DNA of 64,000 nt from Gammaproteobacteria bacterium (GTDB lineage: Bacteria > Pseudomonadota > Gammaproteobacteria > UBA4575). The first letter of the stretch is position 1. Each line of letters begins with the position of its first letter. Positions 48,375 to 51,694 of the stretch are shown piece after piece. The notes beneath the pieces are model-generated. The model was not told the DNA's origin. It worked only from the letters and a program-made list of their open reading frames with translations, and ran no database searches. A program made the position numbers and the translations under genes. The stretch lies in contig CBDCUI010000009.1 in the NCBI GenBank assembly GCA_965222615.1, positions 214,454 to 278,453 of the forward strand, in the 5' to 3' direction.

Positions 48375-49379
48375 ATGGCACACGGTAGATTGCTCAGACA
48401 ACTCATTCGTGCTGGTGTTAATGCGCCCGGAGAAGAATTTCGTGAGGTAGCCGAAAAGGTTATTCGCGAAGAACGTGAAAAAAAACATCATTTACTAGCT
48501 AATGATCTAGAACGGATTCTGTACGGCGAAAGTAATGATGAAGCACGTACCCTCTTACCACTATCGCTACCTGAAGTGCCAAAGGATCGAGAGCGACATA
48601 TACCACTTTTAGAAATTCGCGAACCAGTTCGTTCTTTCGCAGACATTGTTCTTACCAAAGACAACCGTGAGATACTCGAACATGTTTTGCAAGAACAGGG
48701 ACGGCGTGATGTGCTTGGCTCTTATGGTTTGAAACCTGCCAATCGTTTACTATTCTGCGGGCCACCTGGATGTGGAAAGACCTTAGCTGCAGAAGTATTA
48801 GCGACCGAGCTTGGTTTACCACTACTCTTAGTGCGCTTTGATGCGGTTGTGTCATCCTATCTTGGTGAAACTGCAGCAAATTTACGAAAAGTGTTTCAGT
48901 ACCTTGAAACTGGACGTTATGTTGTTTTGTTTGATGAGTTTGATGCGATAGCAAAAGATCGTGCGGACGCATCTGAGCATGGTGAATTACGAAGGGTTGT
49001 AAATGCATATCTGCAAATGATGGATAGCTATCGTGGCAATTGTTTGTTACTTGCCGCATCAAACCATGAAGGTTTACTTGATAAAGCCCTTTGGCGACGA
49101 TTTGATGAAGTACTTTTCTATCGTCGCCCAACAACAGAAGAAATTATTGATTTGGTTGCTGTAAAACTTCGAGGTATTCGCTATAACTTTGAAACAGAAA
49201 ACGAACCGACTATCGCTAACTTCAATGGGATGGCGCACGCTGACATTGAGCGTGTATTGATCCGCGCAATTAAACATATGATCTTATCGGGTCGTGAATT
49301 TTTAAGCACTGACCACATCGCACTTGCCCTAGAACGAGAACGGGAAAGACGATCTGTCGCTGAACATAAGTCGATTTAA
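48375..49379 (+). CDS. AAA+ ATPase, IetA-like (partner of the downstream S8 protease)
   Basis: 334 aa. Walker A GPPGCGKT, Walker B VVLFDEFDAI, sensor-1 ASNHE; classic AAA core. Stop is 5 bp before the S8 protease start. Confidence 0.7.
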   Translation: MAHGRLLRQLIRAGVNAPGEEFREVAEKVIREEREKKHHLLANDLERILYGESNDEARTLLPLSLPEVPKDRERHIPLLEIREPVRSFADIVLTKDNREILEHVLQEQGRRDVLGSYGLKPANRLLFCGPPGCGKTLAAEVLATELGLPLLLVRFDAVVSSYLGETAANLRKVFQYLETGRYVVLFDEFDAIAKDRADASEHGELRRVVNAYLQMMDSYRGNCLLLAASNHEGLLDKALWRRFDEVLFYRRPTTEEIIDLVAVKLRGIRYNFETENEPTIANFNGMAHADIERVLIRAIKHMILSGREFLSTDHIALALERERERRSVAEHKSI

Positions 49380-49384
49380 CAGTA

Positions 49385-51694
49385 ATGGTAGATCGACTAC
49401 CGCATCTAAGAATGGCTCGAGCAGAGCCGATTAACGAACGACGCCGACGACCAGGATTTGGACCTGGGCGGCCTAAAGACCCTGGTCGTCACGCCCAAGA
49501 GTTAAAAGAAAACCTTGATGAGCATAAAGACTCACCAGAAAACGAATTAGCTGGTTTCGATCCGCGCCACTTACTCAAACTCGAAATCGAAGGCATTGCT
49601 GGTGATGAGCTTTCAAACATTCCAGAATTCAGTGTCGTTACTGAAGAAGGGAGTAACGTAACTGTGTTGTTTGCTACGGAAAGCGCATTGAAAGAATTTC
49701 GTAGTCGATTAGAACAACTTGAAGCAGGTAATCGTGCGACACGTGAGCAAATATTATTTGCAGTTAAGGGATTTGATTATATTACTGCGGATGATCGCCG
49801 AGGCCCCCGGTTAAGCACGGATGGAACGCCAAACAAAGAGCTTTTCATACTGGATGTTGAACTTTGGGCGCTTGATCTTCGTAATGAACGAGATGCGATG
49901 ATCGAATATTTCGTTGAGTTTTGTCATCAATCTAATATTGACATTCGTGATCAAGTTAATCATCCATCGCTTGTTTTGTATCGTGTAGAAACATCTTCTG
50001 ATGGTCTAAACAAATTACTTAACATGCGTGATGTAAGGCGTGTTGACTTACCCCCTCAATATGAATTTGAGATGGAGTTACTTGATGCGACGGTGAACTC
50101 ATTACCAGAAATTAAACCACCACCCGACAACGCACCCACCATAGCAATATTAGATTCAGGAATAGCCAGTGCTCACCCACTTTTAGAGCATGCTGTTGGA
50201 GACGCTCAATCATTTGTTGACGAAGATCCCATCGACCTTGTTGGCCACGGTACTACAGTAGCAGGTCATGCTTTACTTGGTGATGTAGCAACTGTCGCTC
50301 AAAGCGCAACGCATACCGCTGAACTTCGAATACTCAGCGGTAAAATTGGTCAAGGCCGAGATGATGTAACTTTGATTGAAAATCGCATTATTGAGGCGGT
50401 GCAATATTTTAAGGAACACTATAATTGTAGAGTGTTCAACCTATCTATCGGTGTTTATGCTCGCCCTTACCTAGGCGGACACGTTGATAGACTTGCAGCT
50501 ACTATTGATTGGTTATCTCGTGAGTATCAAGTGCTGTTCATTGTCTCGACGGGTAATATCCATTCAAGTGTGCAAGGGCCAGCCAATTGGCGAGAAGGTT
50601 ACCCACGCTATTTGTTGGAAGATGAATTTCGCTTGTTAGATCCTGCTCCAGCATTGAACGCAATAACAGTAGGCGCATTAGCTAATTATGAGGTCGCCCG
50701 AATGGCTGCACGTAATCCTGACGATCCTTCATATCAACCTATTGCGCATCGTGATCAACCATCACCCTTTACGTTGTGTGGTCCAGGTCCAAATGATGCA
50801 ATAAAGCCAGATTTTGCCGACTACGGTGGTAATCGTTATATTGATTCACGCCAAGCACCGCGACCATTAGCAGGAAATGAATTAGGTGAGCTCGGATTAA
50901 GTAATAAATTTGCCACTGGAAACTTGTATAGAGTTTCAGTGGGCACAAGTTTTGCTGCACCTCGTGTTGCACACTGTGCTGCACATATATTACGTCAGTA
51001 TCCCGATGCGTCACCGTCGCTTCTTAGGGCGTTGTTGGCTGCTCATTCAACTGTGCCTACTTCCACAGCGGATTTGGATCTAGACAAATCAGAGGTACTA
51101 CGTCTTGTTGGATACGGTAAGCCCAACAAAGAATATTCACTGTATTCCGAAAACAATCGCGTTACAATTTTGGCCGAAGAGACACTTGCTCCTAATGAAC
51201 ATCACTTCTACCAACTTCCTATGCCGGATGATCTTTTTAAGTCTCCTGCTCGTCGACCTCGACGAATTACTGTTGCTCTCGCACATACGCCACGAGTTCG
51301 ACGAACGCGTTTAAAATACCGGGAAAGTGAGATGTCTTTTCGAATAATTAAAGCCGAGAGCCTTGAATCCGTGACTCAAGCTTATCGGAGGCTGCGGAAA
51401 GATGAGAAAGAAGATCTAATTCCGGAAAGTGATTTCACACCAGGCCCTACGCTGCGTGAAGGTGGTTCATTGCAGTGTGCTACACGCATACTTGGTCAAG
51501 TGGATGAGCGATACCGAAGAAAACCATACTTCTTAGTTGTAACCAATAATGTACCAGATTGGGTTAGCTCAATTGATTCGGAGCCTTATTCGCTTGTAAT
51601 CGTTATTGAAGATCAATCAGACGTTGAAGTAAATCTATATACGCAAATCCAATTAGAGCTACAAGAGCGTGTGCGCACACAGGCTCGGAATTAA
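49385..51694 (+). CDS. Subtilisin-like S8 serine peptidase with large N- and C-terminal extra domains, IetS-like
   Basis: 769 aa. Catalytic triad motifs AILDSGI (Asp), GHGTTVAG (His), GTSFAAPRVAH (Ser). About 240-aa N-terminal and 270-aa C-terminal non-protease regions; no signal peptide, so predicted cytoplasmic. Confidence 0.75.
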   Translation: MVDRLPHLRMARAEPINERRRRPGFGPGRPKDPGRHAQELKENLDEHKDSPENELAGFDPRHLLKLEIEGIAGDELSNIPEFSVVTEEGSNVTVLFATESALKEFRSRLEQLEAGNRATREQILFAVKGFDYITADDRRGPRLSTDGTPNKELFILDVELWALDLRNERDAMIEYFVEFCHQSNIDIRDQVNHPSLVLYRVETSSDGLNKLLNMRDVRRVDLPPQYEFEMELLDATVNSLPEIKPPPDNAPTIAILDSGIASAHPLLEHAVGDAQSFVDEDPIDLVGHGTTVAGHALLGDVATVAQSATHTAELRILSGKIGQGRDDVTLIENRIIEAVQYFKEHYNCRVFNLSIGVYARPYLGGHVDRLAATIDWLSREYQVLFIVSTGNIHSSVQGPANWREGYPRYLLEDEFRLLDPAPALNAITVGALANYEVARMAARNPDDPSYQPIAHRDQPSPFTLCGPGPNDAIKPDFADYGGNRYIDSRQAPRPLAGNELGELGLSNKFATGNLYRVSVGTSFAAPRVAHCAAHILRQYPDASPSLLRALLAAHSTVPTSTADLDLDKSEVLRLVGYGKPNKEYSLYSENNRVTILAEETLAPNEHHFYQLPMPDDLFKSPARRPRRITVALAHTPRVRRTRLKYRESEMSFRIIKAESLESVTQAYRRLRKDEKEDLIPESDFTPGPTLREGGSLQCATRILGQVDERYRRKPYFLVVTNNVPDWVSSIDSEPYSLVIVIEDQSDVEVNLYTQIQLELQERVRTQARN

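Follow-up and report, generated by a model that had tools for sequence, protein, structure and literature searches.

Two adjacent genes of the same orientation, ietA and ietS, are located at positions 48375-49379 and 49385-51694, respectively, on the plus strand of the window (the whole analyzed stretch of DNA, 64,000 nt). As assigned by PADLOC, Pfam and sequence motifs, ietA encodes a 334-aa ATPase of the classical AAA+ clade (putative antitoxin/regulator partner), while ietS, assigned by PADLOC, Pfam and invariant residues, encodes a 769-aa, presumably cytoplasmic S8 subtilase (putative toxin/effector); with ietA in first position, the pair displays the gene arrangement that PADLOC specifies for IetAS. 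The stop codon of ietA and the start codon of ietS are separated by 5 nt (TAA-CAGTA-ATG), and both genes are probably translationally coupled. Chance open reading frames are excluded by the HMM E-values of 1e-93 (IetA) and 1e-197 (IetS); since promoter and terminator scans around ietAS did not rise above chance level, the operon structure is read from the gene spacing alone.

The upstream neighbor of ietA, encoded on the same strand at a distance of 121 nt, is a 216-aa tyrosine recombinase at the head of the cassette (47603-48253; Pfam Phage_integrase, 1.3e-18); downstream of ietS, tnsB-, tnsC- and tniQ-like genes are present on the opposite strand. The surroundings are a mobile region rich in IS elements, in which the module comes immediately downstream of the tniQ-like gene: a 6.2-kb block is bracketed by a 55-nt inverted repeat (I2), the arms of which (45681-45735 and 51780-51834; 54 of 55 positions identical) abut the end of IS110 copy B on the left and a 281-bp MITE-like element with IS30-like ends (51835-52114) on the right. 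A near-perfect palindrome of 1.76 kb (45716-47476, center at ~46598; inverted repeats I1, I3, I5, I6 and I7) harbors two small, convergent HTH genes (ORFs at 45783-46199, plus strand, and 46998-47405, minus strand) that are 95-96% identical to each other; the full HMMER search retrieved 1,993 relatives of this gene, and its matches to HTH_17, AbiEi_4 and Rv2175c were all sub-threshold.

The IetA ATPase

The motifs by which the initial annotation had recognized a 334-aa AAA ATPase were all located in the ORF at 48375-49379 (GPPGCGKT at residues 129-136, DEFD at 187-190, ASNHE at 228-232). The PADLOC IetA model PDLC02196 matched residues 2-326 with an E-value of 2.6e-93 (profile positions 2-325 of 374), three more PADLOC IetA models also recognized the protein, and the Pfam AAA domain was assigned to residues 125-248 (E-value 4.3e-29). 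The protein is composed of a conserved N-terminal segment (aa 1-46), the AAA core (125-248) and a lid domain. Across 82 family members, there is no variation in Walker A and B, N230 and R241/R242, and the pore loop S160-S161-Y162-L163-G164 is conserved; thus, sensor-1 and the arginine fingers are retained without exception, together with a conserved aromatic-Leu-Gly pore-loop-1. The closest solved structures are those of p97/Cdc48 D2 (E-value about 1e-46), and the proteasome-activating nucleotidase (PAN) and p97 are the closest relatives of IetA. These are hallmarks of hexameric unfoldases that thread polypeptides, as p97 D2 and PAN do.

Domain structure, catalytic residues and location of IetS

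In agreement with the earlier description of an S8 peptidase of 769 aa that starts 5 nt behind the ATPase gene and has an intact triad, the catalytic residues D257 (LDSG), H288 (GHGT) and S522 (GTSFAAP) as well as the oxyanion residue N391 are present in IetS and invariant in an alignment of 61 IetS sequences. Based on the intact and invariant residues, both the protease and its ATPase partner are predicted to be catalytically competent. The PADLOC model PDLC02198 aligned with IetS residues 7-768 (profile positions 6-788 of 795; E-value 1.1e-197), and seven more PADLOC IetS models matched the protein as well. The S8 catalytic domain comprises aa 249-578 (50129-51118, plus strand; PF00082, E-value 5.8e-34), and in the PDB profile search subtilisins were matched in this region only. 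The portions beyond Peptidase_S8 amount to ~248 aa on the N-terminal and ~190 aa on the C-terminal side, i.e. roughly 440 aa instead of the about 500 aa given by the initial annotation, whose statement that a signal peptide is missing was upheld: the maximum Kyte-Doolittle value of a 12-residue window in the first 50 aa was −0.11, without indication of a signal peptide, and that of a 19-residue window over the whole protein was 1.05, without indication of a transmembrane segment. From these values, IetS is predicted to be a soluble, cytoplasmic protein.

The N-terminal part of IetS starts with an Arg-rich tail (aa 1-30; 49385-49474, plus strand) with the conserved residues H7, L8, R12, R19, R20 and P30, which is a candidate handle or pseudo-substrate. 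It is followed by two tandem alpha/beta domains (Y4kK_N and Y4kK_2nd, aa ~55-222; 49547-50050, plus strand) that have the fold of subtilase pro-domains and I9 inhibitors. According to its secondary structure, the C-terminal region consists of a beta-rich domain (aa ~590-745) and a terminal helix (751-768; together 51152-51691, plus strand), and it contains the invariant residues R626, R639, R642, E681, R691, Q697, T720, W726, Y735 and R762. The AF2 model of IetS (pLDDT 86.2) found its top Foldseek matches in Tk-SP (3afg), KP-43 (1wmd) and SubHal (5fax), subtilases with a C-terminal beta domain of which 527-644 columns were aligned. Residues 1-10 reached a pLDDT of 86 and formed beta-bridges in the full-length model versus a pLDDT of 42 when the N-terminal region was modeled alone; the tail would, according to the models, dock in the full-length context only. 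Comparators for the IetS pro-domain are subtilases that retain their pro-domain (ProN-Tk-SP 3afg, PCSK9, CspB) and the I9 inhibitors (POIA1); IetS differs from these by its predicted cytoplasmic location, the two tandem alpha/beta domains, the conserved N-terminal tail and the AAA+ partner.

Affiliation with the IetAS family

The pair of the window is a normal full-length member of the known IetAS family of ATPase-protease toxin-antitoxin and anti-phage systems and belongs to the Y4kK/Y4kL-type clade. The initial annotation had suggested an IetAS-like pair and made this dependent on matches to defense-system HMMs; the PADLOC models of both proteins matched decisively, and the pairing of ietA and ietS is kept in 83 of 84 related loci, with intergenic gaps mostly between −4 and +29 nt. 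With considerable confidence, the two genes are regarded as an IetAS toxin-antitoxin/abortive-infection pair with the corresponding general mode of action, independent of the recombinase. The proposal of a distinct variant, which the initial annotation had derived from the large domains flanking the protease, was not borne out: the family profile covers IetS residues 7-768, the Y4kK_N and Y4kK_2nd domains occur family-wide, and the PADLOC models fit the window pair better than the founding pair from the Ti plasmid (311 and 657 bits versus 239 and 86 bits). Of the 793 IetS homologues, nearly all among the 120 listed are ~770-780 aa in length and carry Y4kK_N, Y4kK_2nd and Peptidase_S8. The Y4kK-type S8 peptidases with AAA partner (PDLC02198) share length, the three domains, the invariant residues and the upstream IetA with the window pair; there is no architectural difference, whereas the genomic context differs. 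The closest IetAS relative is 76% identical (36-76% identity to other Y4kK-type members), and relatives are encoded in at least 522 species genomes; with regard to IetAS itself, the locus therefore adds little more than one further member.

An unrelated housekeeping ATPase beside a secreted protease would be compatible with the generic domain content and with nothing more; the absence of a signal peptide, the full-length matches to the IetA and IetS models and the conservation of the pairing across phyla render this explanation practically negligible.

The IetAS of pTi1D1487 (Agrobacterium Ti plasmid, locus L003) has the same order of ATPase and S8 protease genes, with gaps of 3-5 nt in both cases. 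Its IetA (328 versus 334 aa) is 32% identical over the full length and keeps the motifs of the window protein, with F-M-G instead of Y-L-G in the pore loop; its IetS, with 836 aa the longer of the two, shows 25% identity restricted to residues 191-697 (the protease domain plus a portion of the C-terminal region), and the N-terminal regions of the two proteins do not align. The nearest tested systems are thus distant from the window pair (pTi IetAS, 25-32% identity). IetAS was reportedly tested as an anti-phage system by Gao et al. 2020, and the IetAS of B. cereus m1293 is said to have been tested as such by Stokar-Avihail et al. By HMM, the tested anti-phage IetAS and the NCBIfam IteA/IteS families belong to the same family as the window pair. 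However, the best NCBIfam matches, IteA_antiphage for IetA (230.4 bits versus a cut-off of 510) and IteS_antiphage for IetS (147.3 bits versus 900), are far below the equivalog cut-offs; in consequence, the window pair is placed in a different sub-clade of the same broader family, and a function equivalent to that of the tested exemplar is extrapolated.

In relatives, IetS has been described as toxin and IetA as antitoxin, the protease activity is needed for defense, and ietA mutants could not be constructed (PMC13069673); one relative acts by abortive infection, for which a single phage protein, SPbeta yosG, can be the trigger (bioRxiv 10.1101/2022.08.27.505566). Toxicity of IetS, its neutralization by IetA and protease-dependent protection against phage are known for such distant relatives only and would apply to the window pair by analogy. 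The molecular mechanism of IetAS is still unexplained according to the NAR 2026 paper (PMC13069673).

Proposed mode of action

According to the models, IetS may be a zymogen-like protease for which its own pro-domain provides part of the restraint. In the uninfected cell, an ATP-driven IetA hexamer would keep IetS harmless, possibly by gripping or threading its conserved N-terminal tail, so that IetS stays in the inhibited state or is brought back to it. A phage protein that occupies or blocks IetA would allow IetS to escape, and the free protease would cleave host and/or phage proteins and arrest growth before the phage cycle is completed. This specific restraint model is given about an even chance; the IetA-IetS contact and the roles of the tail and the pro-domain are suggested by single-chain models. 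The structural reading (the pro-domain/I9-fold module of IetS, the Arg-rich tail and the threading pore loops of IetA) extends to the whole mainstream IetAS clade and offers directly testable hypotheses for the control of a protease "toxin" by an AAA+ "antitoxin".

A pro-domain in cis alone predicts an inactive IetS and fits poorly with IetS being toxic without IetA. Owing to this discrepancy between the pro-domain and the reported toxicity, an activator role of IetA has to be considered, in which IetA, upon encounter of a phage protein, unfolds and removes the pro-domain of IetS or threads substrates into IetS in the manner of a two-component ATP-dependent protease. The fused pro-domain/I9 fold would indeed predict a self-inhibited zymogen that needs removal of its pro-domain, and the unfoldase-type pore loops and the proximity to PAN and p97 would suit such a function; the reported antitoxin nature of IetA and the failure to construct ietA mutants (PMC13069673), however, are the opposite of what is expected of a pure activator, and this role is considered rather unlikely.

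IetAS was first described as a plasmid-stabilizing toxin-antitoxin system (PMC13069673), and the window pair lies in a mobile, IS-rich region beside transposition and recombination genes. Both points would agree with ietAS serving mainly as an addiction (stabilization) module of the carrier mobile element and contributing hardly or not at all to phage defense in this host. Relatives, however, protect against phage (PMC13069673; bioRxiv 10.1101/2022.08.27.505566), and the same cassette position is occupied in sister loci by the defense systems Gabija and PDC-S06; a predominantly stabilizing function is therefore judged unlikely. Addiction and anti-phage roles of IetAS are not mutually exclusive.

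The recombinase and its 26-bp sites

The recombinase upstream of ietA contains the catalytic candidates R58, H163, R166, H190 and Y199, is devoid of an N-terminal core-binding domain and belongs to a family of at least 2,467 relatives. It is part of a separate recombination module and not a component of IetAS: although the initial annotation had associated the two, a relative of the recombinase was present within 10 kb of none of the 84 IetAS loci, the two closest IetAS relatives (72-76% identity) are without it, and its own relatives head other cargo, i.e. Gabija, PDC-S06 and Ppl-like systems. A distinct IetAS variant of three or more components, with the recombinase and/or the flanking domains acting in defense, might be suspected from the short distance and common strand of recombinase and ietA and from the existence of variants with an added gene such as ietHAS (Liu-DS4), in which the IetAS core is likewise joined by an adjacent extra gene; the latter is a SNF2 helicase required for defense (PMC13069673), in contrast to the tyrosine recombinase with its own sites in the window. 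Considering the recombinase distribution, the lack of HTH ORF relatives in all 84 IetAS loci and the family-wide occurrence of the flanking domains, such a variant is highly improbable.

A 26-bp palindromic core site of 9+8+9 structure (CCCCAACTA TTGCACAA AAGATGGGG; 47457-47482, plus strand) precedes the recombinase start by 146 nt; in 15 of 18 loci, the same site precedes the recombinase gene by 144-172 nt. A second copy (CCCCAACTT TTATTAAA AAGTTAACG; 51780-51805, plus strand) is positioned 85 nt past the ietS stop codon and closes the module of recombinase and ietAS; comparable cargo-distal sites exist in the loci L085, L086 and L087. At the strict threshold, four sites were detected in the window (all between 39 and 52 kb), four in L085, three in L086 and two in L087, whereas 1.37 Mb of control loci and the remaining 45 kb of the window yielded none. 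The window thus shows both elements of the provisional cassette definition (one site ~146 nt ahead of the recombinase gene and another behind the cargo), and recombinase and ietAS together make up a single "site - recombinase - cargo - site" module. The putative role of the recombinase would be to serve this module, by resolution or cargo exchange, rather than the defense reaction.

A third, inverted copy (45710-45735, minus strand) and the copy at 51780 have identical spacers, and these two sites lie in the nearly identical arms of the 55-nt repeat. Such an arrangement, together with a small recombinase that resembles FimB/FimE in lacking the core-binding domain, could be expected of a phase-variation invertase that turns IetAS on and off by flipping the 6.2-kb block, or else a promoter, between inverted sites. 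Yet the whole operon and the recombinase itself are enclosed in the block, no promoter-like partner is found outside of it (IS110 on one side, the MITE and the 3' end of the tniQ-like gene on the other), and relatives beside a Tn3 transposase or plasmid ParA occupy resolvase positions. The designation as FimB-like in the initial annotation could not be maintained: the recombinase is similar to Fim-type invertases in size alone and scored 23.4 bits (NF007371) and 19.9 bits (NF007370) versus cut-offs of 222 and 221. Inversion is accordingly seen as a very unlikely function.

An integron integrase was likewise rejected (TIGR02249, 21.9 bits versus a cut-off of 265; the sites are 26-bp palindromes and not attC), and the recombinase is not a full-length Xer protein either. 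The tyrosine resolvases of the Tn4430 TnpI/IRS type offer a parallel: there, too, the gene of a small recombinase is immediately preceded by its core site. Integron cassettes and the pdif modules of Acinetobacter resemble the site-bounded blocks with interchangeable, often defense-related cargo; the 9+8+9 palindromes of the window, however, differ from attC hairpins and 28-bp dif sites. The XerC-like/dif-like system of Tn6022 has been published as a case of a Tn7-like island that contains a tyrosine recombinase together with its site, and small serine recombinases as markers of defense loci have been published as well. A literature search of limited extent yielded no description of the present recombinase family.

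One recombinase relative is encoded directly upstream of a Tn3-family transposase, another beside plasmid ParA. We tentatively propose, as a possibility on the doubtful side, that IetAS is carried as payload by exchangeable defense cassettes of a hitherto undescribed class, defined by the ~216-aa recombinase, the 26-bp site ~146 nt upstream and sites after the cargo; in an integron- or pdif-like manner, the recombinase would move or swap IetAS, Gabija, PDC-S06, Ppl-like and Avs-like systems between Tn7-like elements, Tn3-family transposons, plasmids and chromosomes. The recombinase as marker of a recurrent architecture with interchangeable defense cargo is the more novel by-product of the analysis and, if true as a mobility mechanism, would represent a new route of defense-system exchange and a practical bait for new systems.

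Tn7-like transposition genes

The Tn7-like genes form a block on the minus strand (52199-57434) that comprises a tniQ-like (52199-53785), a tnsC-like (53798-54787) and a tnsB-like gene (54800-56695) as well as a 253-aa ORF as tnsA-like candidate (56673-57434), which overlaps the start of the tnsB-like gene. In the Pfam analysis of the block, AAA_22 was above its cut-off (1e-11), while TniB (22.1 versus 22.4), TniQ (25.4 versus 27 bits) and rve_3 (23.1 versus 26.5 bits) were slightly below theirs; the tnsA-like ORF had no Pfam or NCBIfam match. The search for transposon ends (terminal inverted repeats with repeated TnsB-binding sites) or a target-site duplication enclosing the tns genes and the IetAS block gave nothing above the AT-rich background, and neither a tRNA nor another recognized attachment gene was present near the block. 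Cargo of Tn7-type elements normally sits downstream of tniQ; judged from its position downstream of the tniQ-like gene, the IetAS block is plausible as Tn7 cargo. The order and overlaps of the genes are consistent with a Tn7-like element, and so are the relatives in L087 and on plasmids: the tnsA-like ORF shares 22% identity with its counterpart in L087, and next to a plasmid-borne TnsB relative lies a gene whose annotation includes a TnsA N-terminal domain.

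Membership of the gene pair in the IetAS family

The two open reading frames lie on the forward strand at exactly 48375-49379 (ietA, 334 aa) and 49385-51694 (ietS, 769 aa), as the initial annotation had placed them, and are separated by a gap of 5 nt (TAA-CAGTA-ATG). The ATPase motifs GPPGCGKT (residues 129-136), DEFD (187-190) and ASNHE (228-232) were borne out; the catalytic triad of IetS (D257, H288, S522) is intact and, like the oxyanion residue N391, invariant in a 61-sequence family alignment. Pfam places AAA at IetA residues 125-248 and Peptidase_S8 at IetS residues 249-578: the protease carries a large non-catalytic part as claimed, the size of which is ~440 aa instead of ~500 aa. 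Neither an N-terminal hydrophobic segment nor a TM-grade segment is present in IetS, in agreement with the reported lack of a signal peptide, and the reading of IetS as a secreted protease was rejected for this reason.

The IetAS call itself is correct: in the defence HMM check, which the initial annotation had named as its own refutation test, both proteins gave strong, end-to-end matches to the PADLOC models (IetA to PDLC02196, E 2.6e-93, residues 2-326; IetS to PDLC02198, E 1.1e-197, residues 7-768 against profile positions 6-788 of 795). Database search revealed 793 IetS homologues at E <= 1e-10; nearly all of the 120 listed among these have ~770-780 aa and the same three precomputed Pfam domains (Y4kK_N, Y4kK_2nd and Peptidase_S8), and the 61-sequence alignment contains many invariant residues within the N- and C-terminal regions. 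Because of this common length and domain content and the invariant terminal residues, the large flanking domains, formerly regarded as uncharacterised and as the possible mark of a distinct variant, represent the family norm; the window pair is a further member of the already known IetAS family.

The IetA of the founding system on the pTiC58-type Ti plasmid (L003) is 32% identical to the window IetA over its full length, and the corresponding IetS is 25% identical to the window protein over residues 191-697. As the window pair outscores the Ti plasmid pair on the PADLOC models (311 and 657 versus 239 and 86 bits), it belongs to the mainstream of IetAS as the name is used at present. The anti-phage equivalogs IteA and IteS were the best NCBIfam matches, yet scored 230 bits against a cut-off of 510 and 147 bits against a cut-off of 900, respectively; the window pair belongs to another sub-clade than the NCBIfam exemplar, and the same function is an extrapolation.

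Relatives are encoded in at least 522 genomes in a scan of one genome per species, including Pseudomonadota, Bacillota, Myxococcota, Acidobacteriota, Chloroflexota and other phyla. IetA is located directly upstream of IetS on the same strand in 83 of the 84 loci examined (gaps mostly -4 to +29 nt), the sole exception being truncated by a contig end. The two closest relatives (76% and 72% identity) have unrelated neighbours, and megablast of the 6.3-kb block against plasmids gave zero matches. The best plasmid IetAS relative (36% identity) is found on the Vibrio parahaemolyticus plasmid pHLA (L004, region 1272-8253); its neighbours are SIR2, adenosine deaminase, a non-canonical NTP pyrophosphatase, an HTH gene and IS256, surroundings that look like a defence island. 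Promoter and terminator scans remained at chance level and were set aside.

Structural features and proposed mechanism

Among solved structures, IetA is closest to the D2 ring of p97/Cdc48 (E about 1e-46), and outside the IetA models its best NCBIfam matches are proteasome-activating nucleotidases. Invariant among 82 family members are Walker A and B, the sensor-1 residue N230 and R241/R242; residues 1-46 show strong conservation, and the pore-loop-1 motif S-S-[F/Y/L]-L-G-E-T is conserved with an aromatic residue in 74 sequences. Together, such traits characterise a hexameric polypeptide translocase that hydrolyses ATP and has a dedicated docking segment at its N-terminus.

Sequence search of the PDB detected neither an IetS nor an IetA structure. 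The AF2 model of IetS was confident (pLDDT 86.2, pTM 0.77), and its best solved structural matches were subtilases with a C-terminal beta domain and pro-Tk-SP (527-644 aligned columns). Residues 1-10, part of a tail with conserved H7 and L8 followed by R12, R19 and R20, were confident and beta-bridged in the full-length model and disordered when the N-terminal region was modelled alone; this difference between the models indirectly suggests that the tail may dock onto the protease or the C-terminal part.

In relatives, IetS acts as toxin and IetA as antitoxin; ietA is not mutable, and protease activity is required (PMC13069673). Defence takes the form of abortive infection, for which a single phage protein can serve as trigger (bioRxiv 10.1101/2022.08.27.505566). 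We prefer, with middling confidence, a restraint model: IetS would be a zymogen-like cytoplasmic protease that an IetA hexamer holds harmless at the expense of ATP, probably via the N-terminal tail of IetS; a phage protein would occupy or block IetA, and IetS, once freed, would bring about cell arrest. That IetA instead acts as an activator, which strips the pro-domain from IetS or feeds substrates to it, would fit the pro-domain fold of IetS but is at odds with the antitoxin genetics of IetA and is considered unlikely. The interest of the locus lies mostly in such testable structural hypotheses on IetAS and in the cassette architecture of recombinase and site that was met by the way.

The tyrosine recombinase and its putative recombination site

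The 216-aa tyrosine recombinase encoded upstream of ietA (47603-48253, forward strand) had been described as FimB-like and as associated with the system. The former label is unsupported by model score. The association is unsupported too, and the recombinase does not form part of IetAS: a relative of it was present within 10 kb in 0 of the 84 IetAS loci; likewise, relatives of the 138-aa ORF (45783-46199, forward strand) were absent within 10 kb of IetAS in these loci. Model scores rejected the identity as Fim-type invertase or integron integrase (IntI); Tn6022 TnsF and XerC-like identities were also considered and rejected. The candidate catalytic set is complete (R58, H163, R166, H190, Y199). 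The family is large and tightly conserved (2,467 matches, many at 60-82% identity), and a metagenome scan yielded 9 loci only, most of them short. Its relatives adjoin ParA or TA genes on plasmids and head a Tn3-family transposase in L100/L101; the proximity to Tn3 transposase and plasmid ParA argues for a resolvase-type ancestry.

A 26-bp palindromic site, composed of two inverted 9-bp arms and an 8-bp spacer (CCCCAACTA-N8-TAGTTGGGG), precedes the recombinase start by 144-172 nt in 15 of 18 loci. A permissive threshold gave some likely false positives (for example window 23106 and 58773; L104 11569), and a stricter threshold together with a 1.37-Mb control was used: four sites were found in the window at 39-52 kb, four in L085, three in L086 and two in L087, whereas the control loci (1.37 Mb) and the remaining 45 kb of the window were free of sites. 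The window sites are 39200-39225, 45710-45735 (inverted), 47457-47482 and 51780-51805, in addition to a degenerate copy at ~52138-52163; the inverted copy has a spacer identical to that of the copy at 51780. Recombinase and ietAS together are enclosed by the sites at 47457 and 51780, the latter being the cargo-distal one, 85 nt past the ietS stop. Cargo-distal sites were found at 10490, 14512 and 15428 of L085, each behind successive gene blocks, at 13159 of L086 (with another site upstream at 4249) and at 12423 of L087, behind Gabija genes. The site was also noted in L093 and L102.

The cargo headed by the recombinase varies by locus: besides IetAS in the window, it comprises a complete Gabija system adjoining tnsA/B/C relatives (L087/L088; GajA 2.7e-213, GajB 9.7e-185), PDC-S06 (L086; 5e-168), a Ppl-like ATPase (L104/L105), a protein of 1,712 aa whose Avs4-like match is partial (L103), a protein with LmuA-like N-terminus (L102), M78 and DUF4411 (L085) and the Tn3 transposase. 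The recurring site, the recombinase and the varying cargo possibly constitute an undescribed cassette-exchange system; in the window, the recombinase could serve in resolution, excision of cassette circles, inversion or exchange of cargo. TnpI/IRS of Tn4430, integrons and pdif modules are among the closest concepts in print. A limited literature search did not find a description of the recombinase family; two further close concepts are the use of small serine recombinases to mark defence (PMC13552941) and the Tn6022 XerC-like/dif-like system (PMC11014353).

Inverted repeats and insertion sequences

The block is bounded by inverted arms of 55 nt at 45681-45735 and 51780-51834 (54/55 identical), both abutted by IS termini starting with ATGTCCGC: the left one belongs to IS110 copy B, the right one to a MITE-like element of 281 bp (51835-52114) whose ends are IS30-like. 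The outer 15 nt of a 70-nt repeat were considered as an IS30-like end; this was rejected, as alignment of the two IS110 copies identified them as the terminus of copy B, and the true inverted repeat is therefore 55 nt. The IS nest spans 39247-45680 and 51835-52114, every element terminus starting with the same sequence, and comprises two IS110-family copies (40852-42303 and 44245-45680, 98.7% identical), a third IS110-family gene (39335-40378) and an IS30-family element (42349-43609). Since the IS termini meet both arms at an equal position, 29 nt from the 26-bp site, site-specific insertion beside these sites is suggested. A ~245-nt unit is duplicated in tandem at 43632-44028 (several segments 100% identical), in the interval that separates the IS30 element from IS110 copy B.

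The entire 12.9-kb IS and IetAS region is enclosed by a 58-nt inverted repeat (39204-39261/52100-52157, 98% complementary), the outer 43 nt of which hold a palindromic copy of the recombination site; it looks like a single palindromic target split by a composite insertion. A 1.76-kb near-perfect palindrome (45716-47476, centre ~46598, outer 594 nt 94% complementary) encodes two convergent small HTH proteins of 138 and 135 aa (95-96% identical) with only sub-threshold matches to HTH_17, AbiEi_4 and Rv2175c. The orphan status of the 138-aa ORF, derived from a word-indexed search, was rejected by full HMMER, which revealed 1,993 relatives; most of them form the C-terminal part of proteins 190-350 aa long. 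A ~27-nt sequence of the inner palindrome (46514-46540, 46657-46731) recurs with 89% identity at 58255-58281, downstream of an XRE-type HTH gene and right of the tnsA-like ORF; a small repeat element and a terminator are possible readings of this sequence.

Tn7-like genes and genomic context

A putative tnsA-tnsB-tnsC-tniQ operon, its tnsA uncertain, occupies 52199-57434 on the reverse strand. Immediately downstream of its tniQ-like gene comes the recombinase/IetAS block, in the place that Tn7-type cargo normally takes. The domain evidence for the operon is borderline save for AAA_22; gene order and relatives lend support. The tniQ-like protein (52199-53785; 528 aa, long and Cys-rich) falls slightly under the Pfam TniQ cut-off, and the 253-aa ORF in the TnsA position (56673-57434) has zero matches in Pfam or NCBIfam, which suggests a putative divergent Tn7-like lineage. 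TnsB and TnsC relatives occur in L087/L088 at 33-34% identity, with no tniQ called beside them. Tn7-like terminal repeats and a target duplication were sought by four approaches, namely k-mer matching, a repeat search across the whole window, the density of inverted partners, and blastn-short comparison of candidate left ends with the sequence that lies upstream of the tnsA-like ORF; none stood out from the AT-rich background, and neither a tRNA nor a recognised attachment gene lies near the block. In L087, an equivalent recombinase and Gabija module is located on the tnsA side of the tns genes; adjacency to tns genes without containment is therefore possible. That the IetAS block is cargo of the Tn7-like element has about an even chance of being right.

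It is well supported that the block lies within a mobile, IS-riddled island (~39.2-57.7 kb) inside the chromosome of a sulfur oxidiser. The island is flanked by SoxY, SoxZ, a c-type cytochrome and a TauE exporter (62430-63754 and 60075-61148), on account of which the host appears to be a sulfur-oxidising bacterium, of about 38-42% GC. The gene at 30167-38689 contains 414-nt tandem repeats (92-95% identical); in its product of 2,840 aa, DUF11 is repeated seven times and accompanied by DUF7507 and an OmpA domain.
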